Under the pieces are notes generated by a model. It saw only the letters and a program-made list of their open reading frames with translations. It was not told where the DNA came from and did no database searches. Of a stretch of 64,000 nucleotides of DNA, positions 8,069-64,000 are shown piece after piece. The DNA comes from Octopus vulgaris (taxonomy: Eukaryota). Positions within the stretch are counted from its first letter, which is position 1, and every line of letters begins with the position of its first letter. The translations under genes were made by a program, and so were the position numbers. Where the stretch lies: positions 114,142,001 through 114,206,000 of the forward strand of contig OX597822.1 of the NCBI GenBank assembly GCA_951406725.2. Direction: 5' to 3'.

Positions 8069-8140
8069 GGGTTTGTTCAATAATAACCTGAATAAAATCA
8101 AACCAGAAACCTTCCAAAACCTGTCCAGTTTAGAAAGTCT
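8069..8140 (+). CDS. LRR gene 72-nt exon (LRR1)
   Basis: ttttatgttccAG / GTAAGT; phase 2-2; translates GLFNNNLNKIKPETFQNLSSLESL. Confidence 0.9.
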
Positions 8141-12979: not shown

Positions 12980-13252
12980 TCATATATATCTACATAATGG
13001 TTGTGTGTCTACGTGTCTGTTTAGCTATGGATATGTGAATGTAAGTGTATGAAAATTTACTAGTAATTCGGTCTCTATATCAAGGACGGTATTTATATTT
13101 CCATCATCATCATCTCTTCGTTATGGATTGTAACACCATATATTTTCACCTCAGCCTCATATAATATTCATCACTATTAATATCACAACTACTACCATCT
13201 CTATCACCATAGTTTTCTTTCCCACCTTCCCACTCATCGTCCTCCGATCGTC

Positions 13253-13308
13253 CTGGGTTCTGATGACATCAAGGAAATTAATGCTGACACCTTCCGAAAT
13301 TTGTCCAG
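13253..13308 (+). pseudogene. LRR pseudo-exon (acceptor and normal donor deleted)
   Basis: Encodes LGSDDIKEINADTFRNLS, similar to exon 16722-16793. No AG acceptor; the 3' end is fused directly to the post-exon intron motif gttgaat. Confidence 0.75.
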
Positions 13309-13569
13309 GTTGAATTAGTTTTCTTCTTCAGTATTTCATGGACGATATATTTCTAATTCTGTATTATGTGCACATCCTTCATTTAGGCTCCCTCACCTGT
13401 CCTTCCAAAGAAGATATTTATTGATCGTGAATTTGAGAGTGTGAGTGTGGGTTCATTTCTGAAATGTGGGATATATACAAGGCGGAACGCATTTACTGCA
13501 TGTATATGTATATATCTGTGTATCTTCTCAAACTTACTCTGACCACACTACGGATTTTATACGTATATT

Positions 13570-14548: not shown

Positions 14549-14620
14549 AATCTTACGTTTAAATGCCATTACGGAAATCAAACCAGACACCTTCCGTTAT
14601 TTGACACGTTTAAGAATACT
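14549..14620 (+). CDS. LRR gene 72-nt exon (LRR2)
   Basis: ttttatgttccAG / GTAAGT; translates ILRLNAITEIKPDTFRYLTRLRIL. Confidence 0.88.
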
Positions 14621-16721: not shown

Positions 16722-16793
16722 ACACTTGGGTGCTAATGAAATCCAAGAAATCAGTGCTGACAGTTTCCGAAATTTGTCCAGTTTACAATATCT
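16722..16793 (+). CDS. LRR gene 72-nt exon (LRR3)
   Basis: ttttctgtttcAG / GTAAGT; translates HLGANEIQEISADSFRNLSSLQYL. Confidence 0.9.
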
Positions 16794-17305: not shown

Positions 17306-17621
17306 TATATTAATATATATATATATATATATATATGTATATCTACATAATGGTGTTGGCTATTTGCGGTTGTGTGTCTACGTGTCTGTTTAGCTATGGA
17401 TATGTGAATGTAAGTGTATGAAAATTTACTAGTAATTCGGTCTCTATATCAAGGACGGTATTTATATTTCCATCATCATCATCTCTTCGTTATGGATTGT
17501 AACACCATATATTTTCACCTCAGCCTCATATAATATTCATCACTATTAATATCACAACTACCACCATCTCTATCACCATAGTTTTCTTTCCCACCTTCCC
17601 ACTCATCGTCCTCCTATCGTC

Positions 17622-17677
17622 CTGGGTTCTGATGACATCAAGGAAATTAATGCTGACACCTTCCGAAATTTGTCCAG
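17622..17677 (+). pseudogene. LRR pseudo-exon, duplicate of 13253-13308
   Basis: Sequence identical to 13253-13308, at the equivalent position of the second duplication unit. Confidence 0.75.
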
Positions 17678-18914
17678 GTTGAATCAGTTTTCTTCTTCAG
17701 TATTTCATGGACGATATATTTCTAATTCTGTATTATGTGCACATCCTTCATTTAGGCTCCCTTACCTGTCCTTCCAAAGAAGATATTTATTGATCGTGAA
17801 TTTGAGAGTGTGAGTGTGGGTTCATTTCTGAAATGTGGGATATATACAAGGCGGAACGCATTTACTGCATGTATATGTATATATCTGTGTATCTTCTCAA
17901 ACTTACTCTGACCACACTACGGATTTTATACGTATATTTGTGTGTGTGTGTGTGTGTGTATGTGTGTGTGAGTGTGTGAGCAGCTGTGCGTCTTGTTGTG
18001 TGCTTGTGTGTTCGTTTGTGTATAGATGCGGGTACTCGAGTACATCAAAATATATGTGTAATTAGATCTGGGTATCATCTACATTATTGATATCTCTATC
18101 GTCATTGAATATAAATACCTGTTTCACATTTATTCCTCTTTCTTTTTATTTTCTTCTCCTTCATCTTCTTTTTCTTCTTCTTCCCCTCCTACTCCTATAC
18201 TTTAGCCTCCTCCCTCTTCTTCTACATTTCTTCTTCTGAGTTCTCTTTTCCTCTAAATTCTCTACAATTTAATTCGCCACAATTACTGCCGAGATAATTA
18301 TTGACGTCTCCCTCTCCATCCTCATCACCGTCATTATTCTCATCTTCGTTGTTACCTTTCTCAAACATAAACACCGTCAACTTTATCGTCGACCTCGTCA
18401 TCATCGTTATCATTGATTACCAAAAAGCACCACGATAGGAATACTCAACCTCCTGGTCATCCTGATCATAGATAACAGACACATTACCAACAACGCCACC
18501 ATCCTCAATATCATTTTCATATTCCCCATTTAAATGCTAATCCCCAATCATTATCATAACAATCAGCATTAACAACATCACTCTGGTCATCATCACCTCA
18601 ATATCTTCATCATCCCTACCGCCATAGATTTTTATATTCTGGTTCATCCTCATATTAATGACTGTCAAGACCAGATATTCTACAACTAAATCTATCAGCA
18701 CAGGTTTCCGACCTCCTCATCCTTCTCGTTTTCCTTCTTCTCTCTCCTTCGACTTATTGTCATCATCATCAACATCATTGTCGACAACTTTATCTGCAAC
18801 AGTCTAATCATCATCGTGACTTGATGTTCATCCTTTCCTTCATGTAACCGTTTACCCAAAATTCTGTCATAAATGTCTCATAAAATTGCTTCTTAACTCA
18901 ATTTTATGTTCCAG

Positions 18915-18986
18915 GTACTTGATTGATAATGATATCCAAGTTGTAAAACCTGACACCTTCCGACATTTGTCCAGTTTAATAATGCT
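18915..18986 (+). CDS. LRR gene 72-nt exon (LRR4)
   Basis: ttttatgttccAG / GTAAGT; translates YLIDNDIQVVKPDTFRHLSSLIML. Confidence 0.9.
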
Positions 18987-22630: not shown

Positions 22631-25600
22631 AAATTTAAATTTACATGTATGTATATATATACATACATGTAAATTTAAATTTAAAATACAAATGGGGACA
22701 AAATTGAATATTAATTTGTTTAATATGAATTGAAAACCAGTGGCGTAGCATATAAGACCCTAGTGGATCTTCTCCTTGCAAAATGGATGTCTACTCTTAA
22801 TGGTTCATCCCTCTTATATAATAGTTTGATTTAATAGTTTCAGTATTAAAGTGAAAGCATGTGACATTACAATAGAGAGATGTTTTTGTTTCACTTTTAA
22901 CACGTAATACTGAAATATTGGGGAAGATATGATATTGCAGTGGCCTCGCCCTGGGCAAGAAGTAAAAATTGTTTTACCCATGACACTACATGGACCCTAA
23001 GTAAGGTATGTGTAAAATTCGAATGAAATTGGTTTTGTAGTTCTCAAGCTTTAGGGATTCACACAGACAGATAAACATACATTCTCAGTTTTATATATAT
23101 AGATATCTGTGTAAATGTATATATATATATATGTGTGTGTGTATGTGTGTGTGAGTCTGTGTATAAATGTATATATATATATATATGAATATAACAAAGA
23201 GGGTCTTTGCAACAAGTTGCTAGACCACATACCGAAAGTATTAGAAATGGCAGCCAGAGGACTGTTATTTCTATTACTACAAAAATATGTCTCCACAGAC
23301 AACAGTATTTGTAACTCATTATGTGGCAAAAAAGAAGAAAAATAGCGAAATCAAACAGTCCACGGTCAATTGTGGACGTACGTTTCTGGATTAGAATCAA
23401 AGATTCATTTCCTTTATTAACATAATATTCCGCTAAGTAAATCTGGAAATGCTAGGAAATCTTACCCTCCATATCTATGGATATGTGTATGCAAGTGTAT
23501 GGAAATGTACTTGTAAATCGGTCTGTATATCATGTACGGTGTTACCAATGATTAGCCTTTCCCTACGAATTTGAAGTTTTCTTTCCCATGTCCCTCTTCT
23601 CATGATCCTCTTCTTTTCTTATTCCTTCCTCTTTGTTTTCTTCTTCTCCTCCTACTCATTTTCCTTATTTTTCCTCCTTCTGTTTTACTTCTAATTATAC
23701 AAACTGTACTCCTTCTTCGTCTCCTCCTCCTTCTTCTTCGTCATCATCTCCTCCTCCCCTCCTTCTTCTTCTCCTTCTACTAATATTTCTTCGTCGACTT
23801 GCAGCCCTCATTCCACTCTTTCTTCTCGTTCTTTCATTACTTCATCTTTTATCACTCTTTCCTTTCAGCTTCTATTCCTTCTTCTTCTTCTTCTTCTTCT
23901 TCTTCTTCTTCTTCTTCTTCTTCTTCTTCTTCTTCTTCTTCTTCTTCTTCTTCTTCTTCTTCTTCTTCTTCTTCTTCTTCTTCTTCTTCTTCTTCTTCTT
24001 CTCCTCGTGTATGTAAAAATTCTCGTTCATGAATCCTTCATAACATTTTCTCTTTCTCTTTCTCTTCCGCTGAATTCTCTGTTCCTTATCTCTAAGTTGA
24101 ATCTATTTCCTTCTTTAGTCATTTCATTGACGATATTTCTCTCAATCTGTAATATGTGCCCATCGCTCCTTTAAGCTCCCTCAACCGTCCTTCGAAAGAA
24201 GTCTTTTATCGTTTGTGTAATTGAGTATGTGATTGTGGGAGCATTTCTTATATATTGGATATGTGAGTTCACGATCCAAGATGGAACACATTTATTGCAT
24301 GCATGTGTATATGTCTGAGTACGTTTACAATCTTTCTCTGAACGAAACTGTACTATTGTTTGTGAAATCACTGCTAATGTTCTGGAGGGCCATTCCTGCG
24401 ATTTCGGATATGACAGTTTGAGACAATTGTAGGGAAACTTATAGTGCTATGTCTGTGTATCTATCTATCTATCTCTCTCTATATATATATGTGTGCGTAT
24501 ATGTGTGTGTTTACGTGTGCATGCGTGTATGTGTGTGTGTTTGTGTGTGTGTATGTGTGTGTGGGTTTGTATATATAGATATGTGTGTGTGTTTGTGTGT
24601 GAGGTTGTGTATATATGCCTGTTTTTCTATGGATGTGTGTATGCAGTGTATAAAAATGTACTGGTAATTCGATCTCTATACCATGAACCGTATTTATTTT
24701 TCCATCACCAATGATTAACATCTTAGATTTCCTGTCTTTCTACTTCCTCGTTATCATCCCCCTGCTCCACTTCATCCTCCTCTTCGTTTCCTCTTTTTTC
24801 TTCTTTTTCTCCTACACCATCCCCTTCTTTTTCCTTTCTTCCTTTTTTTCCTTTTACTTATACATCTTCTTCTTGTCTTCTTCTTTTCCTAATTCTTGGT
24901 CGTCTCCTTTAACCCTTCTTCCCCCTTTTCCTTTTCTTTCTTTACTTCATCTGTTTTACTCTCTTTTTCATCTTTTCCTATTCCGCTTTCATCTCCAGCA
25001 TCATCCACTTCTATTCTTCTTGTTCTTCTTCTCCTGCTTCTTCTTTCTTCTTCTTCATCGTATTCTCCTCCTCTTCCTCCATATTCTTCTTCTTTCTCTA
25101 CTTCATCTGTTTTACTCTCATTACCATCGTCTTCATCATCATCCTCTTTTCTTCTTGTTCTGCTTTTCCTGCTCCCTTCTATCTTCTTCTTCATCATCAC
25201 CTTTTCCTCACCTTCCTCTTCACACCCTCGTCTCCTTCTTCTCCTTCTTTCTTTATTTCTCGTGTGTGTAAAAATATCCTCTTTCTCCATCATCAGCTGA
25301 AGTCTCTTATTCCTTTAAATCTATTCAATTCACCTCCATTGCCACCGTGATAACTATGGACGTCTTCCTCTCTGTCCTCATCAGACACATTATTCTCATC
25401 TTCATTGTTACATTTCTCACTCATAAACATCTTCAAGTTCATCGTCACCATCTTCATCATCGAGATCATTTATTACCAAATAGCACCACGATAGAGATAT
25501 AATATCTTGAAATCCATTTTGATCCTGGACGGCAAATACATTACCATCAACGTCATCATCCTCAATATCATATTCATATTCACCATTGAAATGATAATCC

Positions 25601-26703
25601 TCAATCATTATAGTAACAATCAGCATTAACAACATCACTCTCGTCATCATCATCATAATCTCTTCGTTATGGATAGTACCACAATTTATTTTCACTTTTG
25701 CCTTATTAACATATTCATCACTATCAATATCACAACTACTACCATCTCACTATTTACATTATTTACATTTCCTCTATCCTCCACTTCCTCCTCCTCCTCC
25801 TCCACCTCCTCCTCCTCCTCCTCCTCCTTCTTCTTCTTCTTCTTCTTCTTCTTCTTCTTCTTCTTCTTCTTTCATGGTTTCTTCATATCATTTTCTATTT
25901 CTCTATCACCCGCTGAATTCTTTATTCCTCTAAAACCTCTTATATTTAAATCTTCTTTAATATTTCATTACCTTATCTTTCTAAATTTGTAATATGTGCC
26001 TATCCTTCATTTTAACCTCCCTTGTCTATACATCCAAAGTTCAGTTTTATTTTTTGTAAATGTGACAGTGTGAGTGTGGGTCCATTTCTAAAAATATGGG
26101 ATATGTTAATGCACGATACAAGACGAAACCCAGTGAGTGCATGCGCGTGTATTTCTGTGTATGTTTACAATCTTTCTCTATCCGACCTGTGTTATTGTTT
26201 GGGAATCACTGCGAATGTTGCGGGGAGAAATTCGTGAGATTTCTGATATAACAGTTTGAGACAATTGAAGAGAAAATGTGGTGCAAATAATTATGTCCGT
26301 GTGTGTGTGTGTGTGCGATGGTGTCTCTGTGTGCGTGTTTGTATCAGTTGGTGCATGGATGCGTGTATGCGAGTGTAGCAAAATGTATCTGTAATTCGGT
26401 TTCTATATCATGTACGGTATTTATTCCTCCGTCAACACTGATTAACGTCTTTGACTTCTTTTTTCTTCTTATTCGTCATATTCTTCCTCTTGTTCCTTAT
26501 TTCATTTCCTACCCTTTGTCCTTCTGCGTATGTTAATTTATGTCTAACCACTTCCTTTCCTTAATTCTTCTTTTTCTCCTGCTTTGGATGTGTATTTATG
26601 TCTGTTTATGTGTGTTTATCTCTCCCCACTTCTTCTTTCTCATTGTACTTTTTCTCCTGCTTCTTTTCTTTCTTATTCTACTCATTGCCGTTGTTGTTGT
26701 TGC

Positions 26704-26746
<43 letters not shown>

Positions 26747-27129
26747 CTTCTTCTTCTTCTTCTTCTTCTTCTTCTTCTTCTTCTTCTTCTTCTTCTTCTT
26801 CTTCTTCTGCTACTCCTTCGTCTCGTCTAGTTCTTATTTTTCTACTCCTCCTCCTTCAACTCTTCATTCTCTCCTTTTTGTTCTTCCTCTACTACATCTC
26901 TACTTTCCTCCTTTTTCCTCTTCTATTTCTTCTTTTTTTGTTATTTTCCGTCCTCTTCTGTTCTCTTCCTTCCTCTCCTCCTCTTCATATTCTTTCTTCT
27001 CGTCGTCCATCTCATCATCATCTCCATTTACAATTTTTTATCAATATATAATTTCTTTCGTCATAATATTTAACGTTTTGTCACTTATCTTTTCTATATG
27101 TTTGTTATGAACTCCGTTTTATGTTACAG

Positions 27130-27201
27130 GTTTTTGAATGACAATAATATAACGTATATTCAACGCGGTACCATCGAAAACCTTCCGAATTTAGAAAGAC
27201 T
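27130..27201 (+). CDS. LRR gene 72-nt exon (LRR5)
   Basis: ttttatgttacAG / GTGAGT; translates FLNDNNITYIQRGTIENLPNLERL. Confidence 0.9.
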
Positions 27202-28512
27202 GTGAGTTGGGTCGCGTTTGTTCGTACCATCTATTTCTCCATATATCTACGTTGTTAATATTTTCTCCAACTTTGTTTTGTCTATCTCTCTTTCTTGAGT
27301 GTATCTAACTAACACCCATGCACTCTCTCCATAGTTTTCTCTGAGTGTATGTGTGAATGCGTGTTTGTGAAAGTGTAGGTGTGTGGATGAATGAGCTTCT
27401 TTTTTACTTACTTCTTATGCATAGGTAATCATGTTCTTGTTTCTAAACATCCGTTTACCTAATATTCAAATTCTCATTATTCAACTATATTCCATCATTT
27501 TTCTCGTTCTTTACTTCTTTATTCTAGTTTTCTAAGTTTATCTTTTAATCTTCATAAGTTTTTGAGTATGGATGTACAGATACCGAGTATATCAGAAAAA
27601 AGTGTTCAAATTTTAGATACAACTTTGAAACGTTGTGTCTCAGTATCACTTAAAGGTAACAGAACTATCACCTTCTTTTCTAACACAAATGGACCCTATT
27701 TTGAGCAAGACGAAATGTGAGTTCCTCTCCAAGCTCTCATGAATAATCATGAATGAATTGGCGAAGATGAAATTCTATGTTTTAACATAGCTGAGGATTG
27801 GAATGAATTTCAAACATTGGAATAAATTTAAAACGGAAGGTCTTAAAGTTATATTTGAAAGATTGAGTAAGAATTCTGGCCAAACCCCTGGTTTTTAGGC
27901 ATCATGAGTTACTCCTTGTTTGCCAAAGACTTTATCAACCCTTTTCCTGCCTTACCGCAAGATTTCTTGTGGAAAGTCTCATCAATATCTTATTCCCACG
28001 TCCTAAGAATGGAGGTTTCGAGGGCTTTCAGATAGGTGTGGGGCTACTCACAAACGTTTTTACGATCAGTTCATGCCAGATGCTGACGTCCAAAGGGCTC
28101 AAACCAGAGGATGAATGAGGCCAAGTGTCCCTATCCTAAAACATTTTCGCAATATGATCCATGGGAAACATTTGTCTCACTACACTTGTGTGACAAGGAA
28201 CATCCTCTTACCATCAGGGATCATGCAGTTGAAAATTATCACTTAGGTTTTTGCCCCTAAAATGACACTTTTGTCTTTCTCGTGAGCTGAAGCCAGAACT
28301 CAGCCGTCGCGTCAGTTTGTGCGCATATCCTGGGTGAATATCTTCTCACTCGAAGGTTGTGTTTCACTTTGTCGCAGATGAACTTCGCCCTCTCTCTAAT
28401 CATCATCTCCATTTAAATTTCTTAATTATATCTATTTTTTTCGCCATAATATTAAACATTTTGTCACATATCTTTTCTATATGTTTGTTATGAACTCCGT
28501 TTTATGTTACAG

Positions 28513-28584
28513 ATATTTGCATGACAATAATATAACGTATATTCAGCGCGGTACCTTCGAAAACCTTCCGAATTTAAAATATAT
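28513..28584 (+). CDS. LRR gene 72-nt exon (LRR6)
   Basis: ttttatgttacAG / GTGAGT; translates YLHDNNITYIQRGTFENLPNLKYI. Confidence 0.9.
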
Positions 28585-30879
28585 GTGAGTTGGGTTGCTT
28601 TTGTTCGTACCATCTATTTCTCCATATATCTACATTGTTAATATTTTCTACAACTTTGTTTTGTCTATCTCTCTTTCTTGAGTGTATCTAACTAACACCC
28701 ATGCACTCTCTCCATAGTTTTCTCTGAGTGTATGTGTGAATGCGTGTTTGTGAAAGTATAGGTGTGTGGATGAATGAGCTTCATTTTTACTTACTTCTTA
28801 TGCATAGGTAATCATGTTCTTGTTTCTAAACATCCGTTTACCTAATATTCAGATTCTCACTATTCAACTATATTCCATCATTTTTCTCGTTCTTTACTTC
28901 TTTATTCTAGTTTTCTAAGTTTATCTTTTAATCTTCATAAGTTTTTGAGTATGGATGTACAGATACCGAGTATATCAGAAAAAAGTGTTCAAATTTTAGA
29001 TACAACTTTGAAACGTTGTGTCTCAGTATCACTTAAAGGTAACAGAACTATCACCTTCTTTTCTAACACAAATGGACCCTATTTTGAGCAAGACGAAATG
29101 TGAGTTCCTCTCCAAGCTCTCATGAATAATCATGAATGAATTGGCGAAGATGAAATTCTATGTTTTAACATAGCTGAGGATTGGAATGAATTTCAAACAT
29201 TGGAATAAATTTAAAACGGAAGGTCTTAAAGTTATATTTGAAAGATTGAGTAAGAATTCTGGCCAAACCTCTGGCTTTTAGGCATCATGAGTTACTCCTT
29301 GTTTGCCAAAGACTTTATCAACCCTTTTCCTGCCTTACCGCAAGATTTCTTGTGGAAAGTCTCATCAATATCTTATTCCCACGTCCTAAGAATGGAGGTT
29401 TCGAGGGCTTTCAGATAGGTGTGGGGCTACTCACAAACATTTTTACGATCAGTTCATGCCAGATGCTGACGTCCAAAGGGCTCAAACCAGAGGATGAATG
29501 AGGCCAAGTGTCCCTATCCTAAAACATTTTCGCAATATGATCCATGGGAAACATTTGTCTCACTACACTTGTGTGACAAGGAACATCCTCTTACCATCAG
29601 GGATCATGCAGTTGAAAAATATCACTTAGTCAGGTTTTTACACCTCAAATGACACTTTTGGCTTTCTCGTGAGTTGAAGCCAGAACTCAGCCGTCGCGTC
29701 AGTTTGTGCGCATATCTTGGGTGAATATCTTCTGATCTATGTGAAATATCACTCGAAGGTTATGTTTCTCTTTGTCGCCGATGAACTTCGCCCTCTCCAA
29801 TCTTCTAAACTTTTGTCCTGGAGTATCAAGACTCCTCACAAGTTTCATATGCAATTTTGTTTTCACGTCTTCTGTCACCAGATGCCAATAACCTTATGGA
29901 TTGATTTGAATCTCTTCTGATCGATCTCTTCAGCTCCAGATTGAAATGATCCTTCTTGAGGTTATGACCTCTTTATGTAGCTTTCCTCTCCACTATTCCA
30001 TCATTCTTAAACTTATACACAAATGTCTTGATAATTATTGAATGGGCATCGAAGAGGGAATCTAGAGAATGAATTTCGGTACCATTACTGAAGGCCTGAA
30101 TGATCTTAACACTCTCAACCTTGCTCAGTCGGGTGTGGTTGACACAAAACTATTTCATCCTGTTACCTTTCTAGCTAAATATCTTAAATGGTATTTCACC
30201 GATTCTTATAAAAACGGATGTCAGTATGTCCAGTCAGCTTATGTGCAAAACATGTAACAAAAAGCAAAAAGTGTGTTAGTTTAAAAGTTTTCAAGAGTGT
30301 TTGGGCATGGCAGTTTTGCTGTTACATATGTTATATATTTAAGTCTAAGTATATGTGCGAGTGCGCGTGAATGTATCAAATCTTAACCTATTCTCCATCA
30401 TCATCATTAGAAACTTCACTAGCACGAACGTCAACATGAAAATCATCATCATTATCTTCATAATCATCCTCATTAGAATCATTATCACAATCAGCAACAG
30501 CAACATTTTCGTCAACACTACCACATTCTTCCTGTCTTAAGACTCAAAACTATATACGACGACGACGTCTGGCACCACCACTCCTCCTCCACCTCCTCCT
30601 CCCCTTCACCAACACCACCATCAGATTCTCTTGTGAAAAGAAGCTGCGAAAAGCGACACCAAATCAGATGAAAATATAAAAACGAACACTAGTGACTTCT
30701 ACAGATTTCAAAAGTATTTACCTTAGTGCGCTACAGCCTATGGCCAGGAGGATAAGCGAAATACTCAATTAACAATTCGCAAATGCTTTCAATTCCTCAT
30801 TAGAAAATATGCAAATAAGCAAGCTTGATAAGTTCCTACAGAAAAGAAAGAAAACATCTGTTATTTCGATGTGAACTTA

Positions 30880-31771: not shown

Positions 31772-33016
31772 TATTAGGTCAAGTATGAAATTTGTAGAAA
31801 GGTATACGGTAAAATTTGACAGCTGCTCGTTTTGCGCCATTATTATATTTTGACAACCCATATTCTCTTTTAAAAAACTGACACATCTAGTTCTTTATTC
31901 TTTGCGCTTTATAAAGTATTTATTAATCGCTTTTTGCTATTTTTGTTTAGGGATGGATAAGTCAGAAATTCGTACAGTTTTGAAATATGAGTTCTCTCTT
32001 GGAAATACAGCCTCACTGACAGCTCGGAATATTAATAGGGAATTTCATTCTAATGTTATTACACAGCAGACAGTATCTAATTGGTTTGCAAAATTTAGTT
32101 CTGGTAATTTTGATCTTACAAATGAGCAATGCGGTCGACCAGAAACAAAGTTGGATAATGTCGAACTGAAAGCAACCGTCGAGTCTGATCCATCTCAAAG
32201 TGCCTGTGAATTATTGTTGTTGTTTTGTGTTAGCAAGCAATATTGACTCACCTAGTTCAAATCGGTAACGTGAAAACGTTGGATAAGTGGGTCCGATATG
32301 AATTCAATGAAAATCAAAAATAACACCGTTTGGAAGCCTACATTATGCGAGTTTCTCGTCGCAAAAATGAATTATTTTTGAATCGAATTGTAACGTGATG
32401 AGAAATCGATCCAATGCCACAACTGTAGAGATTAACCACAATGACTGGACGAAGACGAGCCACCAAAACACGGTACAAAACGCAAAGTTCATCAAAAGAA
32501 GCTGATGGTGTGCGTTTGGTGGTCTGTTCCTGGTGTGATCCTTTATGATATCATTAACCCTGGCTCATCAATCTCGACCGAAGTCAGCTGGAACAAATGA
32601 TGCAGAAACGTACAAAAACAACCTAGATTAGTCAACAGATCACTCCTATTTTACTGCAAGACATCGCCGGATCACACATCGAAAAAATAACTTTGGCGAA
32701 ACTACAGGGTTTCGAGTTGGAAGCTCTCCTTCATCTACCTACTCACCCGATATTGCCCCCACTGACTACCACATCTTTCAGAATTTCACTAACTTTTTGT
32801 TAGGAAAACAATTAATTCCGATGATGCTGTAAAACAAGCCTTCCAGGAATTTATTCTCTCTAGACTGCCAGGCTTTTACAGTTCCGGGGTACACAGGCTA
32901 CCGCTGAAATGGCAAAATTGTATTGAAAATATGGGTGCATACATTGAAGAATAAAACTATTCCTTGTATTTACAAAACATTGGTTTTCGACAATTTTCAT
33001 ACTTGACGACCTAATA
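31772..33016 (+). mobile_element. Degenerate mariner transposon
   Basis: Imperfect TIRs TATTAGGTCAAGTATGAAA / TTTCATACTTGACGACCTAATA; MDKSEIRTVLKYEF N-terminus, YSPDIAPTDYH motif, multiple stops and frameshifts. Confidence 0.85.
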
Positions 33017-33491: not shown

Positions 33492-33563
33492 ATATTTGAG
33501 CAACAACCAAATACAAAACTATGATGATGGCGCGTTCTTATTCCTTCCCAGTATTTCTACCAT
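33492..33563 (+). CDS. LRR gene 72-nt exon (LRR7)
   Basis: cttttttccAG / GTATGT; translates YLSNNQIQNYDDGAFLFLPSISTI. Confidence 0.9.
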
Positions 33564-35187: not shown

Positions 35188-38100
35188 AAGCTTTATGAAA
35201 ATAAACAGAAGACGAAGGCAGGTGGAAAACAAACGAACAATTGTATTAGTATGGCGCTCAGGAAATATAAATAAAACAAGTCTTTAACGTTTCGAGCCTA
35301 CGCTCTTCAACAGAAAGATACACAGAGAGAGAAAAACACAGAAAGAAGGAGAGAAAAAAATGCGTGCAGTAGCTAACGAATCAACATGGCGATCTGATTT
35401 CGGCCAGAGGTCAAAGATCAAACATGAGACGCGAGAGCGAAATAAGGGGAGATAATAGGGTTGATAAAAGGGTTGAGGGACCAGCTAAAAGTGCGTGGGA
35501 GGGGTCTGGATGTGTGTATGTATAGGGTTGGTGTATGTATTAGTATGTATAAGGGTGTGTGTGTGTGTGTGTGTGTGTGTATGAGAGAGTATTAGTGCGT
35601 AAGATTGGTCTGGACGTGCGTATGTATGGGGTTAGTGTATGTATTAGTATGTATTAGTATGTATTAGTACGTATTGGTATGTATAGGTGTGTGTGTGTGT
35701 GTGTGTGAGAGAGTATAAGTGCGTATGCGGGGTCTGGACGTGTGTATGTATAGGGTTGGTGTAAGTATTAGTATGTACTGGTATGTATTAGTACGTATTA
35801 GTATGTATTAGTTGGTGTGTGTATTAGTATGGCACATCATATGTGATGTGATGTGTAAAGTCATGTGGTGTAGTGAGGAGAAGAGGGGGAGGGGGAGAAG
35901 AGGGGGAGAGAAGGCGAGGGGAAGAAGAGGGGGAGGAGAAGGGGGAAGAGGAGAGGATGGGGAGAAGGAAAGGGAGGAGGGGGATGAAGGAGGAAAGAGG
36001 GAGAGGGGGAGAGAGGGAGTGAGGGAGCAGAGGGAAGGGGAAGAGGGAGGGAGAAAGAGGGAAGAAGGGAAGGGGAGTAGGGGTGAAAGGATGAAGGACT
36101 GAAGAAGTAGGGGTCGGGGGGAGAAAGGATAGGTGAGGAGGGGGAGAGGGGGGTTAGATGAGGAGGGGGGAGAGTTGAGACCAAATGGCGTATAAGAGCG
36201 AAGAGAGAAGATTAATTCCTGTTCACGGTGCAAACGGGAATCCGGATGGCCTCTGTGTAAGGACAAACCGAACACAGATAGGTGTTGCAAGGAGTGACCG
36301 GTGGAGCGGAAATGGCGTGAGACCGGTATGTCGTTCGCAAGGTGGATGTCACGAAGGTGTTCCGCGAACCGGTCAGCCAAGCGGCGTCCCGTTTGTCCGA
36401 TGTACAAGGAATTGCAGAGAGAGCAAGAGATGCAATAGATAATATTGCTGGAGGTGCAGGTGAAGGAGTGGATGATGGGATAGGGTCGATGGTGGGTGCT
36501 AGTGAGGCGGGTGGTGTTGGAGAGGTAAGGGCAAGTGCGGCAACGTGGGCGGGAGCAGGGGAACGAGCCGGGTTGAGAGGTAGGGTCAGGGAAGGAGCTA
36601 TGGACCAAAAGGTCTCGAAGGTTGTGGGCTCGTTTGAAAGAGGGGAGGGGTCGGTTAGGGAAGAGGTGTGAAGTGGACGGGTCGGACTGGAGATGACGGA
36701 AAGCTCGAAGAATGGTGCGTTGGAGACGTAGGGTCGTGGGGTGGTAAGTGAGGGGAAAAGGGAGGCGGGAGACTACAGGGCGGGTTCGGGGAGAGAGAGC
36801 AGATACACGGTCCACGGACCGTGCTCTGGCAAGGGTGGTGTGGATAGTGGTGAGGGGGTATCCACGTAGGGTGAAGTGGTGAGCCATACGTTGAGACTGA
36901 GTCTCAAAGTCATGGTCGTCACTACAGAGCCTACGTAGACGGAGGAATTGGGAATAGGGGATGGAAAGCTTGGTGTGTTCTGGGTGGGAGGAAGAGAAGT
37001 TGAGGTATGAGTGTGAGTCTGTGTGTTTGTAGTGAATGGAGGTGGTAAGAGTGGAGTGAAGAATGCTAACCGAAATGTCGAGGAAGGAGACAGAGGTGTT
37101 GGAGATAGTGGAAGTGAAGTGGAGGGCTGGATGGAAAGATTGGACGAAGGAGAGGAAGAAATCTAGATGTTCGCGGGAGAGTGAGGTGGCACCGATAATG
37201 TCGTCAATATAACGACCATATAGTTCAGGAGTGGGACCAGTGAAATTAGAGAATATTTGGGCCTCAACATAGCCAACGAACAGGTTCGCATAGTTGGGGC
37301 CCATTCGCGTTCCCATGGCCACTCCCGAGACCTGATGGTAGAACTCGCCCGCGAACGAGAAGCAGTTCAGAGTAAGGACAAGTTCGGCCAGACGAATGAG
37401 TGTGGAGGTGTCAGGTACAGGGTTAGAGCGGAGGTCAAGAAAGTGTCGAAGGGCCTGCAGTCCTTCGTGGTGAGGGATAACAGTATAGAGGCTTTGGATG
37501 TCCATAGTAAAAAGGATTTTGGAGGAGCCGGGAGGAAAGGAGAAAGAGTTGAAAAGCCGGAGAGCATGGTTGGTATCGTGGATGTGGGAGGGAAGAGATG
37601 CCACTAGGGGGCAAGGACACGGTCGAGGTATTTAGAGATGAGCTCCGTGGGGCAGTTACAGGCGGAGACGATGGGGCGGCCAGGGTTGTTGGGTTTGTGG
37701 ATTTTGGGGAGGAAGTAAATGGTGGGGGTACGTGGGGTTCGCACAATTAGGTTGGATGCGGTGCGGGGGAGACGGGAGGACGAGATGAGGTCTTGGACAG
37801 TAGAGGATACCGTCTGTTGATAGCTACGTGTGGGGTTAGAGGGCAGAGGGGAATAGAAGGAGGTGTCATTGAGTTGGCGGAAAGCCTCGGCCCTATAGAG
37901 GTCCGCGCGCCACACCACTACAGCTCCACCCTTGTCAGCCGGTTTGATGATAATGTCAGCGCGCCGTTGGAGGGAACGAAGAGCCAAGAGCTCAGCCGGG
38001 GAGATGTTGAGGCGGCGTTGGCGCCTGGAGAAGTTGAACCGCTCCAATGCACGCTGACAAGCGCCCGCGAAAAGATCCACTGCTAGGATCTGGCCAGGGG

Positions 38101-39963
38101 CAGGCGTCCACGGGGATGGTCGGCGGCCCAGGCCAGTGAAGCAGTCGTCCTCTTCGTTGGGTGTGGGTGGCGAGTCGTGGTAATGCGCACCCAACCGGAC
38201 ACGGCGCACAAAGCTGTGGACATCAACTCGCGTCTGGAATTCCTTACAGGATGGAGTGAGGGGGATGAAACGCAGACCCCTACCAAGGACGGAGCGTTCA
38301 GCCGCAGAGAGGGGAAGATCGGGGGGAATGGTAACAACAGACGGAAGTGGAGAAGGGGTGGGTGGAATAGAAGTAGGAGGGGTGGTAGGTCTCGTGGAGG
38401 TCTGAGGGGGAGGGATTGGGGAGGTGTGTGGGGGTGGTTGGGCGGGGCAGTAGGGTTAGGTGTAGGTGGATGGAGCCTAACGGGAGGGGAGAAGGGGTTG
38501 TAGGGAGGGGCAGTGGGGTTAGGTGTGGGTGGATGGAGCCTATCGGGAGGGGAGAAGGGTGGTGGAGGAGTTGGGGTAGTGGCGTCGGGTAGGGTGGAAT
38601 GGAAGAGTGATTGGAGTTTACGAAGTTTGGTATCAGAAAGAAATTGATGGAAGAGTTGATTCAAATGGATAATGAAGCGTAGCGTGTTTGGAGCATAGAG
38701 AGGCGGCAGAGAGGAGAAGAAGGTGGAGAAAGCAGGAGGAAGAAGGCGGTTGATGGCATGTAGTTTGGAGAGATTGGAGCGAATGGTGGCCCGCATAAGG
38801 CGGTAAGATGTGGTGCGGAGTATGGGTAAGATGGAAGAATCCGAGTGGAGAGCAGGGTGGAAGTGGAGGCGGAAACCTTTAGGGATGAGTCGGTGATGTA
38901 GGCAGCGGCTTAGGAAAGAGACATGGCTAGAGAAGCGGGTTTTTTAAAAAGAAGTAGAGAGAGATTAACGGACGGCTGAAGGCAATATACAGGAAGCGAA
39001 CGTAGATGATCCTTCAAACGGTGTTGGAGGGTGAGGAGGTAGGACCTAGGATCCGGCATGATGGGATAGCGGAAAAAAAACGTTCGAAAAAACAAAAAAA
39101 ACAAAAAAACAAAAATTATCGTATGAAAAAAATAGAAAAAAAGGGATAGCGAAAAAAGGGGAAAAACCAAACGTTCAAAAAAACAAAAAAATAATAATCG
39201 TATGAAAAAACTAGATAAATAAGCGATAGGGGCAGAAAAGACGGGGCAAACGGAAAAGGGAAAGAAAGAAGGGAAGCAGAGAGAGGGGGAGGCAAAAAAG
39301 GGGGGTGCAGGCAGAGGAAACGGAGTATGGACATCCAGAGAGGGAAGAAAGACGGAAAGGAGAACAAAAATTCAGGAAAATGTGGGAAGCATGAAATGAA
39401 TGTAAAAAAAGTGGTAATATAAGAGAAAATAAAAATACAACAAACGGGACAGTTTATGCGAACAAGTTCAAGGTTGAAAGTTCAAGGTGAGAAATGTGTA
39501 GACGTCGTGGTATATTTTTTAAGGATTTCACAAGGGTGTGTGTGTGTGTGTGTGTGTGTATGAGAGAGTATTAGTGCGTAAGATTGGTCTGGACGTGCGT
39601 ATGTATGGGGTTAGTGTATGTATTAGTATGTATTAGTATGTATTAGTACGTATTGGTATGTATAGGTGTGTGTGTGTGTGTGTGTGAGAGAGTATAAGTG
39701 CGTATGCGGGGTCTGGACGTGTGTATGTATAGGGTTGGTGTAAGTATTAGTATGTACTGGTATGTATTAGTACGTATTAGTATGTATTAGTTGGTGTGTG
39801 TATTAGTATGGCACATCATATGTGATGTGATGTGTAAAGTCATGTGGTGTAGTGAGGAGAAGAGGGGGAGGGGGAGAAGAGGGGGAGAGAAGGCGAGGGG
39901 AAGAAGAGGGGAGGGGAAGAAGAGGGGGAGGAGAAGGGGGAAGAGGAGAGGATGGGGAGAAGC
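35185..39963 (-). mobile_element. Near full-length Penelope-like retroelement (RT + GIY-YIG) with pseudo-LTR direct repeats
   Basis: Motifs LIPKGF, IIKPADKGGAVVV, PKIHK..PGRPIVS, DIQSLYT, GVAMG, RYIDD, NIIYCISC...YIGQTGR; ATG near 39059 with a few frameshifts; direct repeat ~35551-35965 / ~39532-39962; both ends in (TA)n. Confidence 0.92.
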
Positions 39964-44348: not shown

Positions 44349-44518
44349 CGACCTCAGTAACAATAAAGATATGATGTGTGGATGTTACCTGCCAGCCTTG
44401 GTAAATTATACTAAATCAAAATTCAACAGAACTGTGTGGGTAGGAGGCGAGTGTCAGACAGATCCAGGCAATAAGCAAAGCAGAATTATACCTATAAAGA
44501 AATACACGCAATGTCAAA
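44349..44518 (+). CDS. LRR gene exon: last half-LRR + Cys-rich LRRCT-like cap (gene likely continues downstream)
   Basis: aatttcAG acceptor, phase 2. Translates DLSNNKDMMCGCYLPALVNYTKSKFNRTVWVGGECQTDPGNKQSRIIPIKKYTQCQ (DLSNN...CxC..L...C...C). Probable donor GTTAGT at 44519. Confidence 0.82.
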
Positions 44519-48574: not shown

Positions 48575-50056
48575 AAAATAGAAACAAGTCCCTTGCAGTG
48601 AATTACCGTCCGATCTCACTCACCTCTTATATCATCAAGGTATTTGAGAGGGTGGTGAGATCTCGAATAACCCAATTTCTGGAAAGCAACAGACGGCTGA
48701 TCTCCAACCAACATGGGTTCCGTAATGGAAGGGACTGCCTAACGCAGCTCCTGCATCACTTTGAGGACATTTTGAGAGCTTTGGGAGAGGGCTCCAACAA
48801 CGATGTCATCTACCTTGATTTCAGTAAGGCCTTCGACAGGGTCGATCACAAGATCCTATTGAAAAAACTATCCAACATTGGTGTCTATGGAAAGTTACTG
48901 AAATGGATTAAGTGTTTCCTGACAGACAGATCTCAACATGTTGTAGTTGAAGGGGTAAAATCAAGCCCAGCCAAAGTCAGTAGTGGCGTTCCGGAAGGCA
49001 CTGTGCTGGGCCCACTTCATTCATCATTTACATTAATGACATTAATGACATCATCAAGCACAGCAACATAAAAATCTTTGCAGATGACTCCAAGCTACAG
49101 AAGGTCATAAATGAGGCGAGTGACCGGACATGCCTTCAGTCAGATCTACTGGCTGTTATCCAATGGGCAGAAAAAAACAATATGCTGCTGAACGAGGATA
49201 AATTTGAGCTAATCCACTTTGGAAAAGAGGATGCCCTGAAACTCCCATACTCCCTTCCTTCAGGTGAAACTCTCGCGGCGTCCAACAACATCAGAGACTT
49301 GGGAGTAATTGTGGAAAACAACATAAGCTGGGCCACTCATATAAACACCAAAGTTGACATGGCCCGCAGAATGTGTTCCTGGATTCTCAGAACTTTCCAG
49401 TCGAGAGATATCCACACCATTATCCTTCTCTTCTCCACTTTTGCCCGACCCCACCTTGAATACTGTTGTCCACTGTGGTCTCCCCACACAATACAAGGTA
49501 TCATAAAAGTTGAAGCACCTCAAAGGGCAATCACAAAAAAGATAGATGGCATGACAGGCCTCGACTATTGGGGTCGACTAGAAAAGCTAAAACTCTATTC
49601 TCTCCAACGTCGTCGTGAGCGCTACATCATCTGCATGATGTGGAAAATATTCCATCAGCATTGCCCAAATGATGTTGGCATCACCTTTAAGGTACATCCA
49701 AGGCTTGGGCCCCGTGCAATCCGCACAAAACAAAAATCGCACTCTCATCTCATAACAACAATACGGCACAATTATTTCACCTCAATTGGCCCCGCTCTCT
49801 TTAACATTACACCAAAACACATTAAAACAGAAACTGACCCTATAGGGTTCAAGAAGTCTTTGGACAGATTCCTTCAAGAAATCCCAGATAAACCCCCTAC
49901 ACCCGGATATGTCTCTATAAACAATAACTCTCTACTTGAGTGGGCCATAGTGCCCAAATTCTGACTTGAAAGACTTCACCAGGTGGTGCTATTAAGTTAG
50001 ACATGGCCTGGGCCAATAATGGCCGAAACCTATCAAAGTATCAAAGTATCAAAGTA
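48575..50056 (+). mobile_element. CR1-like LINE family A, 5'-truncated copy
   Basis: [38 protein letters not shown]; near-identical to 45879-46832; one frameshift near 49018; (TATCAAAG)n tail. Confidence 0.92.
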
Positions 50057-50118
50057 TATATATATATATAATATATATATAATATATATATAATATATAT
50101 ATATAATATATATATAAT

Positions 50119-50164
<46 letters not shown>

Positions 50165-50174
50165 ATATATATAT

Positions 50175-50316
<142 letters not shown>

Positions 50317-50326
50317 ATATATATAT

Positions 50327-50491
<165 letters not shown>

Positions 50492-50493
50492 TA

Positions 50494-51682
50494 TTGATTG
50501 ATTGATTGATTGATTCTAGTTTCAGCCTATGAGCTGTGGCCATGCTGGGGCACCGCCATTTGGTGTTGCTACTTGGTTTCACTTCATGGAGGCTTTCTAG
50601 CAACTGCTATTTGGTGCATGAGAGAGTTCGATGCAGCTGCCCTCATCTGCCCCTCCTGCCGTGAACTTGGTTCATCTGGGACACCTGACAGGAAGAGATC
50701 CAGCTTCATTTTAAAGACATCTGTATCCACCCCATGCAGGTTTCTCAGGTTCTTCGGGAGGATATTGAAGAGCTGTGGGCCTCGGAAGCCCAGGCTATCA
50801 CAGAATCTTGTCCTACATCTTGATGGCAGGTTTGGAGTCCTAGGCACCACGCAGTGGCGCCCAGTTCTGGCATTTGCGTAACTCTCGATGCCAAAGTTCA
50901 GGACACTTCCCTCCAGGATCTTCCAGATGTATATTATGGCATATCTTTCCCGCCTACGCTCCAGGGAATATAATTTTAATCTCTTGAGTCTTTCCCAGTA
51001 GCTTACATTCTGCATAGAGGCTATCTTCTTTGTGTAGCTTCGTTGGATCGCCTCAAGTTCTGTGATCAACTTGACACTGGATGGTGACCATAGCTGAAAG
51101 CAATAGTCAAAGTGGCTTAGGACAAGTGTCTTCCAGAGGACCATCATGGTTTCTTGTTCTCTTGTTCTAAAGGTTCTAAGAATCCATCCAGCCAGCCGTC
51201 TACATTTCATTGTCAGTTTAGCAACATGTACATGAAAGGTCGCGTCATCACTCATGTGAATACCCAGGTCACGCACTGATTGTGCCTCTGGGATTGCAAT
51301 CCCTCCGGGTCCAGTGTATTCATTCGGTATTGCATTCAGTTTTGCATGCTGATAGTCTAAAGCTTGAAACTTTCCAGCATTGAACTGCATGCTATTGTTA
51401 TTAGCCCACTTGTATATTTCGTCCAGCTCACATTGCAGGTGTTTAGTGTCCTCAGGGTTCTGTATTGCCTGTGAAACTTTTGTATCGTCTGCATAACTTG
51501 TGATCGTGGCTCTCTGCGTGGCTGAGGGCATGTCTGAGAGGGCCATCATGAACAGTAGTGGTCCCAGAACAGTGCCCTGCGGAACACCGCTCACTATTTG
51601 TGTGTTAATGGAGGTGGCCCCATTGGCTACTACCACCTGACTTCTATCCTTCAGAAAGTCATGAAGCCATTCTCCCAGTTTT
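50494..51682 (-). mobile_element. CR1-like LINE family B, 5'-truncated
   Basis: ORF 50584-51636 with [15 protein letters not shown]; (AATC)n tail. Confidence 0.93.
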
Positions 51683-51707
51683 ATAATATATATATATATA
51701 ATATATT

Positions 51708-51867
<160 letters not shown>

Positions 51868-51875
51868 TATATAAT

Positions 51876-52238
<363 letters not shown>

Positions 52239-52255
52239 TTATATATATATAATAT

Positions 52256-55200: not shown

Positions 55201-55311
55201 TAGCAGTTGCTAGAAAGCCTCCATGAAGTGAAACCAAGTAGCAACACCAAATGGCGGTGCCCCAGCATGGCCACAGCTCATAAGCTGAAACTAGAATCAA
55301 TCAATCAATCA

Positions 55312-55315
<4 letters not shown>
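52256..55315 (+). mobile_element. CR1-like LINE family B, APE endonuclease + RT
   Basis: [34 protein letters not shown]; one 1-nt frameshift near 54781; (AATC)n tail. Confidence 0.95.
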
Positions 55316-55356
<41 letters not shown>

Positions 55357-55371
55357 CATATATTATATATA

Positions 55372-59144
<3,773 letters not shown>

Positions 59145-59160
59145 TATATATATATATGTA

Positions 59161-62769
<3,609 letters not shown>

Positions 62770-62916
62770 ATATATATATATATATAATATATATATTATA
62801 TATATATAAATAATATATATATAATATATATATTATATATATATAATATAATATATATATTATATATATATAATATAATATATATATTATATATATATAA
62901 TATATATATATATATT

Positions 62917-62948
<32 letters not shown>

Positions 62949-64000
62949 GGGCATAGGAACGTTATTCCCAGAGACAGGAAAATACTTATGAGGCGAAGAG
63001 CTAAGCTCTCGAAGCAACTGAATGCACGGCAGAGAAACAATGAGGGACTCCACCTGAAACTTTTTGAAACGGAAACTGCACTCAAACTTTCCTATGAGAA
63101 GTTAGAGGGCAGAGAGAGAAGCCAGGGCCATAGAGAATATTAAAACAAACCCTAAAGCCTTCTTTAAATTTGCGAAAGAAACCACCTCGGTACACTGCAA
63201 GATTGGCCCACTCTTTGATAAAAAGGGCTCTCTAACTGAGGACCCCCAAGGGATAAGTGAAATACTAAAGGAACAGTATAAAAGTGTGTTCACATCCCCT
63301 CTGGGGCACATGCAAATCACAAACCCAGAAGTTTTCTTTGATGCCACAACACTCCAAAACCAAACAACAACCATCGACCACATAGACATAACAGAGAGGG
63401 ATGTAATATCTGCCATAGAAGAAATGAGAATAAACTCAGCTGCTGGACCAGATGGATTCCCAGCAGTCCTCCTAAAAGCATGCAGGCATGCCCTAGCGGG
63501 ACCACTCAAGAAGCTCTTCAGTGGTTCCTTGGCTAACGGTAAACTGCCCAGGGCGCTAAAAGAAGGCACCATATGCCCTATCCACAAAGGAGGGAGTAGA
63601 GCAGAGGCCAAAAACTACAGGCCAGTCTCCCTGACGTCACACATAAGTAAGGTCATGGAACGAATCATCAGAAAAAAACTGATCACGTTCCTCGAAGAAA
63701 CTAACCGTCTCACTGACACACAACATGGCTTTCGCCCAAGAAGAAGCTGCCTTACGCAGCTGTTACAACACTACGACTGGGTACTGAAACAACTACTGGA
63801 TCGCTCACAGGTGGATGTGGTATATCTCGACTTTGCGAAGGCCTTTGACAAAGTCGACCACGGAGTGATATGTCACAAATTACTCAGACTCGGCATAACA
63901 GGAAAAGTAGGTGAGTGGATACATGACTTCCTGAAGGACAGAAGCCAGATGGTTGCAGCCAATGGAGCCCTCTCGGGAAAGACACCAATAGCAAGCGGGG
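62949..64000 (+). mobile_element. CR1-like LINE family C (diverged relative of B), runs off the window
   Basis: IENIKTNPKAFFKFAKETTSVHCKIGPL, AGPDGFPAVLLKAC, NYRPVSLTSH, QHGFRP, YLDFAKAFD; starts directly after (TA)n. Confidence 0.9.

Follow-up and report, generated by a model that had tools for sequence, protein, structure and literature searches.

How can two neighboring exons of a single gene differ most at their outermost codons while the introns around them remain almost the same? The question is raised by a stretch of Octopus vulgaris DNA of 64,000 nt (contig OX597822.1, positions 114,142,001 to 114,206,000; hereafter the window, numbered from its first base), in which two tandem units carry the exons 27130–27201 (A1) and 28513–28584 (A2). 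A1 and A2 are spliced 72-nt phase-2 leucine-rich repeat (LRR) exons, or cassettes, of an expressed octopus LRR–adhesion G protein-coupled receptor (GPCR), here called gene A. A first-pass annotation had read them as an independent, young duplication with changes clustered at ligand-facing exon edges, repeating at a younger stage a pair near 14.5 and 18.9 kb, and had proposed diversifying selection or patch conversion as the cause. The account that we consider probable is that A1 and A2 are old tandem LRR cassettes of an adhesion GPCR, with an intron core likely homogenized by conversion and binding-face codons likely kept different by selection. For the evolutionary mechanism in general, diversifying selection on the likely ligand-binding face together with gene conversion, our confidence is high.

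Differences between the two cassettes

Units 1 (27010–28394) and 2 (28395–29797), on the forward strand like all gene A features below, align at 95.4% identity (42 mismatches and 4 gaps over 1405 columns), with a spacing of 1383 nt between their exons. The exons differ at 10/72 positions (1, 3, 8, 34, 44, 65, 68, 69, 70, and 71); the changes at 1 and 34 are silent, and the others produce F>Y, N>H, I>F, E>K, and R>Y, plus L>I at the junction codon. The peptide FLNDNNI...ENLPNLER of A1 is matched by YLHDNNI...ENLPNLKY in A2, which bears out the residue changes listed earlier (FLN>YLH and ERL>KYI). The reported clustering is likewise real: eight of the ten changes lie in the first 8 and last 8 nt (8/16 changed, vs. 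2/56 in the center; P = 4e-5), an excess that persists against a background of 8% (P = 1e-5) or 14% (P = 7e-4). Counted per codon, with a concave set of six codons (1, 3, 4, 6, 22, and 23) fixed in advance, four of the six concave codons changed versus one of the 17 others (P = 0.008).

Mismatches are denser in the exon (10/72) than in the intron (32/1311; Fisher P = 3e-5), so that intron divergence over the full unit stays below the exon's ~14%. The description of the introns as near-identical holds overall and for the core (27480–28234; 3/755 mismatches, or 0.4%) but not evenly along the unit. Mismatches number 4/210 in 27270–27479, 4/68 directly 3′ of the exon (27202–27269), and 1/45 on the acceptor side; the upstream flank (27012–27084), evidently spared from homogenization, has 10/71 mismatches and 2 indels, a divergence of 14% equal to that of the exon. 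The unit 1 tail (28236–28376) differs from unit 2 at 10 sites and by indels of 4 and 16 nt.

That these differences are consensus errors is discounted by spliced contigs from 3/4 runs (three studies), which agree with the window at the A1 positions 27173, 27197, and 27198. A broader artifact of assembly or consensus, with two alleles laid in tandem, could be imagined since no contig covers both units; however, spliced contigs of three studies join exon 5 (A1) to exon 6 (A2) at GT..AG and the same unit junction recurs in paralogs, leaving this explanation with practically no probability. A DNA contig is identical to 26923–27086 without mismatch, though its run could be the source of the window assembly.

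The x positions of the LxxLxLxxNxL motif face the ligand-binding side of LRRs. Their exposure on that side is also described for brown-algal LRR proteins (PMC3341825; here and below, published work is cited from the accessible portions of each paper). In an AlphaFold model of the family protein P0030 (predicted local distance difference test scores of 83–98 per block in the LRR region), strands occupy residues 30–32, 54–56, 173–175, 197–199, and so on, and repeats in exon register begin at 32, 56, 175, and 199. The strands therefore straddle the exon junctions, and the first-pass annotation was right to assign the edges to the concave β-strand; in this model each concave strand is predicted to be made up of three codons: 23, the junction Leu, and the first of the following exon. 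Because the junction cuts the strand (LxxL|xLxxN), "exon edge" and "concave face" are equivalent here, and any gain or loss of a cassette would pair new half-strands. A Foldseek search places the P0030 solenoid nearest to LGR4, TLR13, and LRIG1.

Age of the tandem pair

The intron core, only 0.4% apart, would suit a simple duplication of recent date whose edges were then rapidly replaced de novo, and in a table of 18 related units four of the exon differences appear in A1 or A2 alone. Most other evidence contradicts such a history. The junction at which unit 2 starts recurs ~118 nt before exons in four other arrays (C29:14483382, 15392455/15391104, 16130198/16128848, and C10:6805736); the tail of A2 is nearer to that of gene B, an inverted paralog (2.8%), than to A1 (6.2%); paralogs already have the His and Tyr codons that A2 carries at its edges; and the upstream flank is 14% apart. 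A recent duplication is thus largely refuted, and we regard it as quite improbable.

The structure of the unit ends points in the same direction. A 16-nt insertion (29733–29748 in unit 2) occurs in 7/18 tabulated units, each the last of a tandem run or gene B's single copy, and is accompanied by a 26-nt deletion in 6/7; A2 is the sole exception, its intron core (28863–29617) lacking the deletion. Intron cores of other genes are 6–9.5% from A1 and those of other tandem pairs 5.1–7.3% apart, as against 0.4% for A1 and A2, which have 33 derived sites in common and whose divergence climbs toward the exon. Because the junction is common to other arrays and A2 combines an old "last-unit" tail with a unit 1 core, intron identity dates homogenization, not duplication: near-identical introns here are a caution against reading age from them. 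Judged from these alignments, A1 and A2 are an old tandem duplicate, not a young one, and the simplest reading is that the A1 core overwrote that of A2, either by conversion or by two unequal crossovers.

The claim of an independent young duplication accordingly falls, as does that of the 14.5/18.9 kb pair as an older stage: the flanks of that pair differ at 13/591 and 17/598 positions, about as little as A1 and A2, and its 27 exon differences are spread over positions 1–59 in a mosaic whose pieces match cassettes from other genes. As a separate observation, the upstream flank of unit 1 (27012–27084) is 11–15% from nearly all members of its class; among the stretches of set 1 (C9, C10, and C29; 157 intact, fully flanked cassettes), nothing that could be its source matched most of the flank at better than 89%.

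Selection and exchange among cassettes

Cassettes were surveyed in the window and 140 stretches of 10 kb (1.46 Mb), which yielded 394 matches, 349 intact and 45 broken, with 317 distinct peptides. In 43 disjoint pairs from set 1 with flanks 0.2–3% apart, intron divergence was 0.017, while differences per nonsynonymous (pN) and synonymous (pS) site were 0.123 and 0.022 in concave codons and 0.016 and 0.028 in the framework. Residues changed at 59/258 concave and 25/731 framework codons, with 10.5 concave changes expected at the flank rate; the concave codons had 59 replacements versus 1 silent change, and removal of the two most divergent pairs left 49/246 and 15/697. When, as a control for bias, pairs were picked on distal flanks only and the near intron was left unselected, concave pN in 52 pairs was 0.161, or 6.9 times the near intron (interval 5.1–9.7) and 3.7 times exon pS (2.5–7.0), with a framework pN/pS of 0.53. 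The 16 pairs of C30/C31 in set 2 gave a concave pN of 0.367, an exon pS of 0.192, and a near-intron value of 0.025 (ratio to pS 1.9, interval 1.5–2.5); codon 8, outside the six, is also fast in set 2. By these sequence comparisons, the six concave codons are changing several times (4–7-fold) faster than nearby silent or intron DNA, and the proposal of diversifying selection gains support across the family.

These rates could also be generated without positive selection, were the exposed sites simply unconstrained and their speed mimicked by conversion mosaics or by clusters of edge mutations. Multi-base codon changes are common, exon silent divergence exceeds that of the intron in C30/C31, and comparisons of gene A with gene B give a pS of 0.16. 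Relaxed constraint cannot pass the neutral rate, however, and concave pN in set 1 is 3.7 times exon pS; silent sites inside concave codons show no increase (0.042 vs. 0.044), the interleaved Leu and Asn codons and adjacent intron bases are quiet, and the concave excess persists when counted per codon. We give this alternative a low probability and retain diversifying selection.

Conversion of patches, the other process that had been proposed, is also supported family-wide. A patch at the 3′ edge of A2 (28580–28596; Tyr codon 23 with T at intron +12) is found in cassettes of three other genes as well; its two elements occur together in 5/15 distinct haplotypes of the A1/A2 class and never apart (5/5 vs. 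0/10, P = 3e-4), and on the intron tree the carriers, A2 among them, break up three sister pairs that have full support. Within a C30/C31 class of 35 cassettes (2/37 were dropped as misframed or divergent), all four gametes are present at 6/6 pairs of four silent sites, the Hudson–Kaplan minimum is 13, in part reflecting recurrent mutation, and the set of six concave residues is unique in 34/35. The 14.5/18.9 kb exons are mosaic: positions 14–36 of the exon at 14549 are 1 base from C29 cassettes and 10 from the 18.9 kb partner. Within classes, the state of silent base 1 is weakly associated with codon 1 (P = 0.014), in a comparison in which none of six other codons tested was significant. Words of 13 nt at the edges were not shared across classes more than center words, the classes having been over-split.

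An exchange bounded by exons might instead proceed through reverse-transcribed spliced RNA, as the differences between C30/C31 pairs fill the exon and end at splice sites, and reverse transcriptases of the long interspersed element (LINE) type are abundant nearby. Yet the 50 nt beside exons of the C30/C31 class are near-invariant (nucleotide diversity 0.02–0.04), so that DNA tracts would be invisible there, and one patch reaches into the intron. A search for two junction patterns identified no intron-less copy, returning 0 matches for one and, for the other, 1 match outside any matching frame. Given the invariance of the near intron and the lack of an intron-less junction, an RNA-templated route is not needed, and we consider it very improbable beside exchange between DNA copies.

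Several observations weigh against selection and conversion as the joint explanation. The other 12 pairs of set 2 (C8/C10/C26/C29) have a concave pN of 0.058, only 2.2 times the intron with an interval (0.65–5.6) that spans unity. Silent sites in C30/C31 diverge at 7.6 times the intron rate, so that much exon divergence there represents shuffled old variation. Pairs often derive from one segmental duplication, which makes the intervals too narrow, and 19/59 changed concave codons differ at 2–3 bases, which inflates base-level pN. The A1 exon bases are identical across three studies, and extreme allelic polymorphism is therefore not supported. The intron +12 marker is a CpG site, which somewhat weakens the patch evidence; the test for templated patches was weak (13/39 vs. 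7.8 expected; 7/37 vs. 4.4 expected); and the published site test on octopus group 3 adhesion GPCRs, considered below, reports no selected sites in its accessible text (PMC6408891). The view of alleles from 4 DNA runs is blurred, as paralogs mix in at 90% likeness.

Two further observations concern cassette boundaries. One C30/C31 class (L091–L120) has an exon silent diversity of 0.18 between 50 intron bases on each side at 0.02–0.04, a sharpness of boundary that is partly unexplained. At 28500–28533 in the window, contigs in 3/4 DNA runs match the acceptor and edge only and then continue as another cassette class, a possible case of cross-class edge sharing.

Structure and splicing of gene A

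The window contains seven intact 72-nt phase-2 LRR exons and two dead ones; the rest of gene A, together with gene B, was found in the 200 kb downstream. The splice model of gene A has 23 exons and 1004 stop-free codons, with non-LRR exon boundaries chosen by a simple score, and predicts, in order, a signal peptide, LRRNT, seven LRRs, LRRCT, a Ly6/uPAR-like fold, HRM, GAIN/GPS, and a seven-transmembrane (7TM) domain. The first coding exon (132–313; signal peptide and LRRNT cap) was located by tblastn to Octopus homologs, with an LRRNT match at E = 3.5e-5 and 23.7 bits, below the cutoff of 25.8. It is followed in the model by LRR exons 1 (8069–8140; AG/GT ends and an open frame), 2 (14549–14620), 3 (16722–16793), and 4 (18915–18986), then A1 and A2, the terminal-type exon 7 (33492–33563, with 36 genome relatives), and the LRRCT exon (44349–44518); the remaining 14 modeled exons (Ly6/uPAR-like, HRM, GAIN/GPS, 7TM) extend beyond the window to G000:C9:114246513. 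The dead remnants lie at 13249–13320, without acceptor or donor, and at 17618–17689, a duplicate of the former.

Splice joint 27201>28513 is present in contigs of 3/4 runs (three studies) and 28584>33492 in those of 2/4. Loose contig ends before 27130 match the last 30 nt of exon 18915–18986 in 3/4 runs (18986>27130), and those after 33563 translate to the start of the LRRCT exon at 44349. The contigs join cassettes in order, which indicates that both A1 and A2 are used, and in order. That the runs are RNA is our guess, GT..AG joints being what splicing yields; this evidence spans exon 4 to the LRRCT exon, the rest of gene A being a model. Contigs of run X15 contain none of these joints. The exact exon-skipping joint 27201>33492 was not found in the 4 runs, although contigs cannot prove its absence; two skipping-like joints, 27197>33510 and 27197>33527, are not GT..AG, are probably derived from paralogs, and were rejected.

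The last modeled exon matches PF00002 (7tm_2; 33.5 bits, cutoff 20.6), indicating a class B 7TM, and the GPS matches PF01825 (54.4 bits, cutoff 22.5), with the cleavage consensus H-L-T/S present as CNHL-TSF. The full GAIN domain (PF16489) reaches 20.5 bits on the homolog P0019, below its cutoff of 26.5, and the homolog P0024 matches ADGRG6/G2 ectodomain chains. In the model, the long N-terminus, from signal peptide to LRRCT, is in frame with the 7TM. The Cys-rich Ly6/uPAR-like part after the LRRCT matches PF16975 below cutoff (E = 0.013), and its template modeling scores of 0.65–0.80 against Ly6/uPAR-type models are below the bar for naming. Pfam scans detected no ROC-COR GTPase domain in the gene A model or homologs and no TIR in the family, which has a 7TM instead of a single transmembrane helix, even though the family protein P0030 is annotated as toll-like receptor 5. 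A Pfam scan of 23 long open reading frames in the window returned transposon domains only, gene A being recognized through its short exons and the 7TM exon beyond the window. Between its Ly6-like and HRM exons, gene B carries three SEA-like exons that have no counterpart in gene A, where the flanking phases still match (G000:C9:114214740-114218981); the SEA-like module of homologs is similar in its ferredoxin-like topology only.

A family of LRR–adhesion GPCRs

The family numbers at least 36–54 genes in one genome, with at least 36 genome matches to the terminal LRR exon (36 candidates), at least 54 to the GPS exon (63 candidates), and at least 70 to one cassette class. Fetched arrays hold 2 to 31 cassettes with AG/GT ends, many of these arrays being covered in part only. 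The gene B 7TM exon has 23 matches, all of them Octopus proteins with names of the ADGRG2/G6/G7- or GPR126-like kind; among 33 matches to the ectodomain, the top 30 are Octopus-type proteins of the family (one unnamed) and the other 3 are generic LRR proteins. Among solved structures, human ADGRG2 and ADGRG6 come nearest in the 7TM/GAIN part (E 1e-52 to 1e-51).

Over 647 columns, gene A shares 51% identity (46% by a second figure) with P0036 of O. bimaculoides, an LRR-GPS-7TM-Death protein with the Death domain at its C-terminus. The GPS-to-Death spacing of P0036 fits Ocbimv22014869, the Death-domain member of Ritschard et al. (2019), and on this sequence match gene A is probably a member of the published octopus group 3 adhesion GPCRs.

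Gene B lies on the minus strand at G000:C9:114304000-114404500. From the Ly6-like to the second GAIN exon it is close to gene A (pS 0–0.06), and its later GAIN, GPS, and 7TM exons are far from it (pS 0.15–0.48); the gene A GPS exon is 98–100% identical to that of four C29 genes. Ectodomains appear to have been swapped between 7TM lineages.

Comparison with known systems

Both an octopus GPCR expansion and this kind of evolutionary pattern, in brown-algal ROCO genes and the variable lymphocyte receptors (VLRs) of jawless fish, were known already. The octopus-specific group 3 expansion, annotated ADGRG6/ADGRG2-like, was described from draft genomes, with LRRs in 5/22 sequences (21–22 sequences in all) and branch-level positive selection (Ritschard et al., 2019; PMC6408891). 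It resembles the present family in its tandem clusters, its GPS and class B 7TM, and the LRRs that some members carry. The accessible account of group 3 includes neither selected sites nor an analysis of exons, whereas the 349 intact cassettes compared here point to site-specific selection and conversion.

Brown-algal ROCO LRR-GTPases have an exon-per-LRR design and selection on the concave face (Teng, 2024, PMC11378527; Zambounis, 2012, PMC3341825). Their 72-nt phase-2 exon per LRR and concave-site selection are both found in the gene A family, and further likenesses are dead exons in introns, LRR numbers that vary between recent duplicates, and a proposed immune role. ROCO proteins are, however, GTPases of the ROC-COR type and not GPCRs; ROCO exons encode the strand in their interior, whereas the octopus strand is cut by the exon junction; and alternative splicing, reported in ROCO, was not seen in contigs of gene A. 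VLRs share hypervariable concave residues between LRRNT and LRRCT caps and conversion-like exchange (PMC13428168), but they are assembled somatically from an incomplete germline gene, whereas gene A is complete in the germline, split by introns, spliced in order, and ends in GAIN-7TM. Somatic diversification of the octopus cassettes is highly improbable. A divergence peak under gene conversion is known in duplicates including exon 5 of red/green opsins (Fawcett and Innan, 2011; PMC3924837), where duplicate introns are likewise homogenized while selected exon sites stay different; the octopus case plays out among cassettes, both inside one gene and across dozens of genes, and favors many variants, not two fixed ones.

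Among vertebrate proteins, ADGRG6/ADGRG2 have the closest GAIN-7TM core and LGR4, TLR13, and LRIG1 the closest LRR fold. ADGRG6 has a CUB-pentraxin ectodomain, ADGRA (ADGRA2/3) an LRR-Ig one, and LGRs a rhodopsin-type 7TM; ADGRG6/ADGRG2, ADGRA2/3, and LGRs are conserved low-copy genes, unlike the octopus family. The gene A family evolves like variable LRR receptors of the ROCO/VLR type and is a member of neither. In the literature covered, which takes in few subscription papers, we came across no description of hypervariable LRR cassettes in octopus adhesion GPCRs; the accessible portions of PMC13193013 and PMC13428168 contain nothing on the octopus LRR–adhesion GPCR family. An inverted arrangement like that of brown-algal ROCO genes may occur at G000:C5:141880850-141905519, where the first two of ten cassettes of one class are on the opposite strand, reflecting either head-to-head genes or inverted cassettes.

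Possible function of the variable face

What might such a family recognize? Under the proposed mechanism, unequal crossing-over would alter LRR number, conversion would homogenize introns and shuffle exon patches, and selection would retain new concave residues; the receptors may make up a repertoire, encoded in the germline, for binding extracellular ligands that vary, with the signal perhaps passed through the GPS/7TM module. That the ligands are microbial or otherwise non-self, met at skin, sucker, and gill, has in our estimate about an even chance. The fuller picture, in which dozens of LRR–adhesion GPCRs with hundreds of cassettes provide variable innate recognition at these surfaces as a VLR-like sensor on a G-protein switch, is more tentative; if true, each cassette gain, loss, conversion, or skipped exon would yield a new strand. 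Axial nerve cord, suckers, skin, and gills all express group 3 genes, one LRR member having 71% of its expression in skin and 17% in sucker (PMC6408891), and ADGRG6-like proteins have been reported in octopus skin mucus (PMC11431876); these data refer to group 3 or ADGRG6-like proteins, not to gene A itself.

The same evolution might alternatively serve a cell-identity or sensory code, in which the variable face takes part in wiring of the arm nerve cord or in recognition of self, mates, or surfaces. Axial nerve cord, suckers, and skin show enrichment of group 3, for which adhesion and axon guidance were the roles proposed by the original study (PMC6408891), and this counts against recognition of non-self; the nearest solved relatives, human ADGRG2 and ADGRG6, are also compatible with such a code. 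Expression in gill and skin speaks against it, and rapid birth and death, the 45/394 broken cassettes, and replacement above the neutral rate would better fit an external, moving ligand. Recognition of non-self at surfaces is favored, with the identity or sensory code a possible but lesser candidate.

Cephalopods have few characterized variable recognition receptors, and this gene family is a concrete candidate. Non-self recognition would mean that an adhesion GPCR has taken up the LRR-cassette strategy known from ROCO, NLR, and VLR genes, and an expansion read as neural adhesion would become a possible arms-race receptor set. With six positions per repeat and a mode of cassette exchange named, expression, ligand, and population tests can be aimed.

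Other features of the window and family

Stretches resembling cassette flanks (70–80%) without an exon between them occur at 23900–26300 and are probably cassettes that have lost their exon. The intron before the terminal LRR exon contains a degraded mariner transposase (31854–32950), and LINE-type reverse transcriptase elements occupy introns after the LRR array (35800–38900 and 48900–64000), with direct and inverted LINE-type copies 97% identical at 53–62 kb. Elsewhere in the family, the proteins P0026-P0028, P0030-P0033, P0037, P0040, and P0041 have no GPS or 7TM listed, and some of them are named toll-like receptor 5, chaoptin, or acid-labile subunit; these proteins may be split annotations or genuinely secreted forms.

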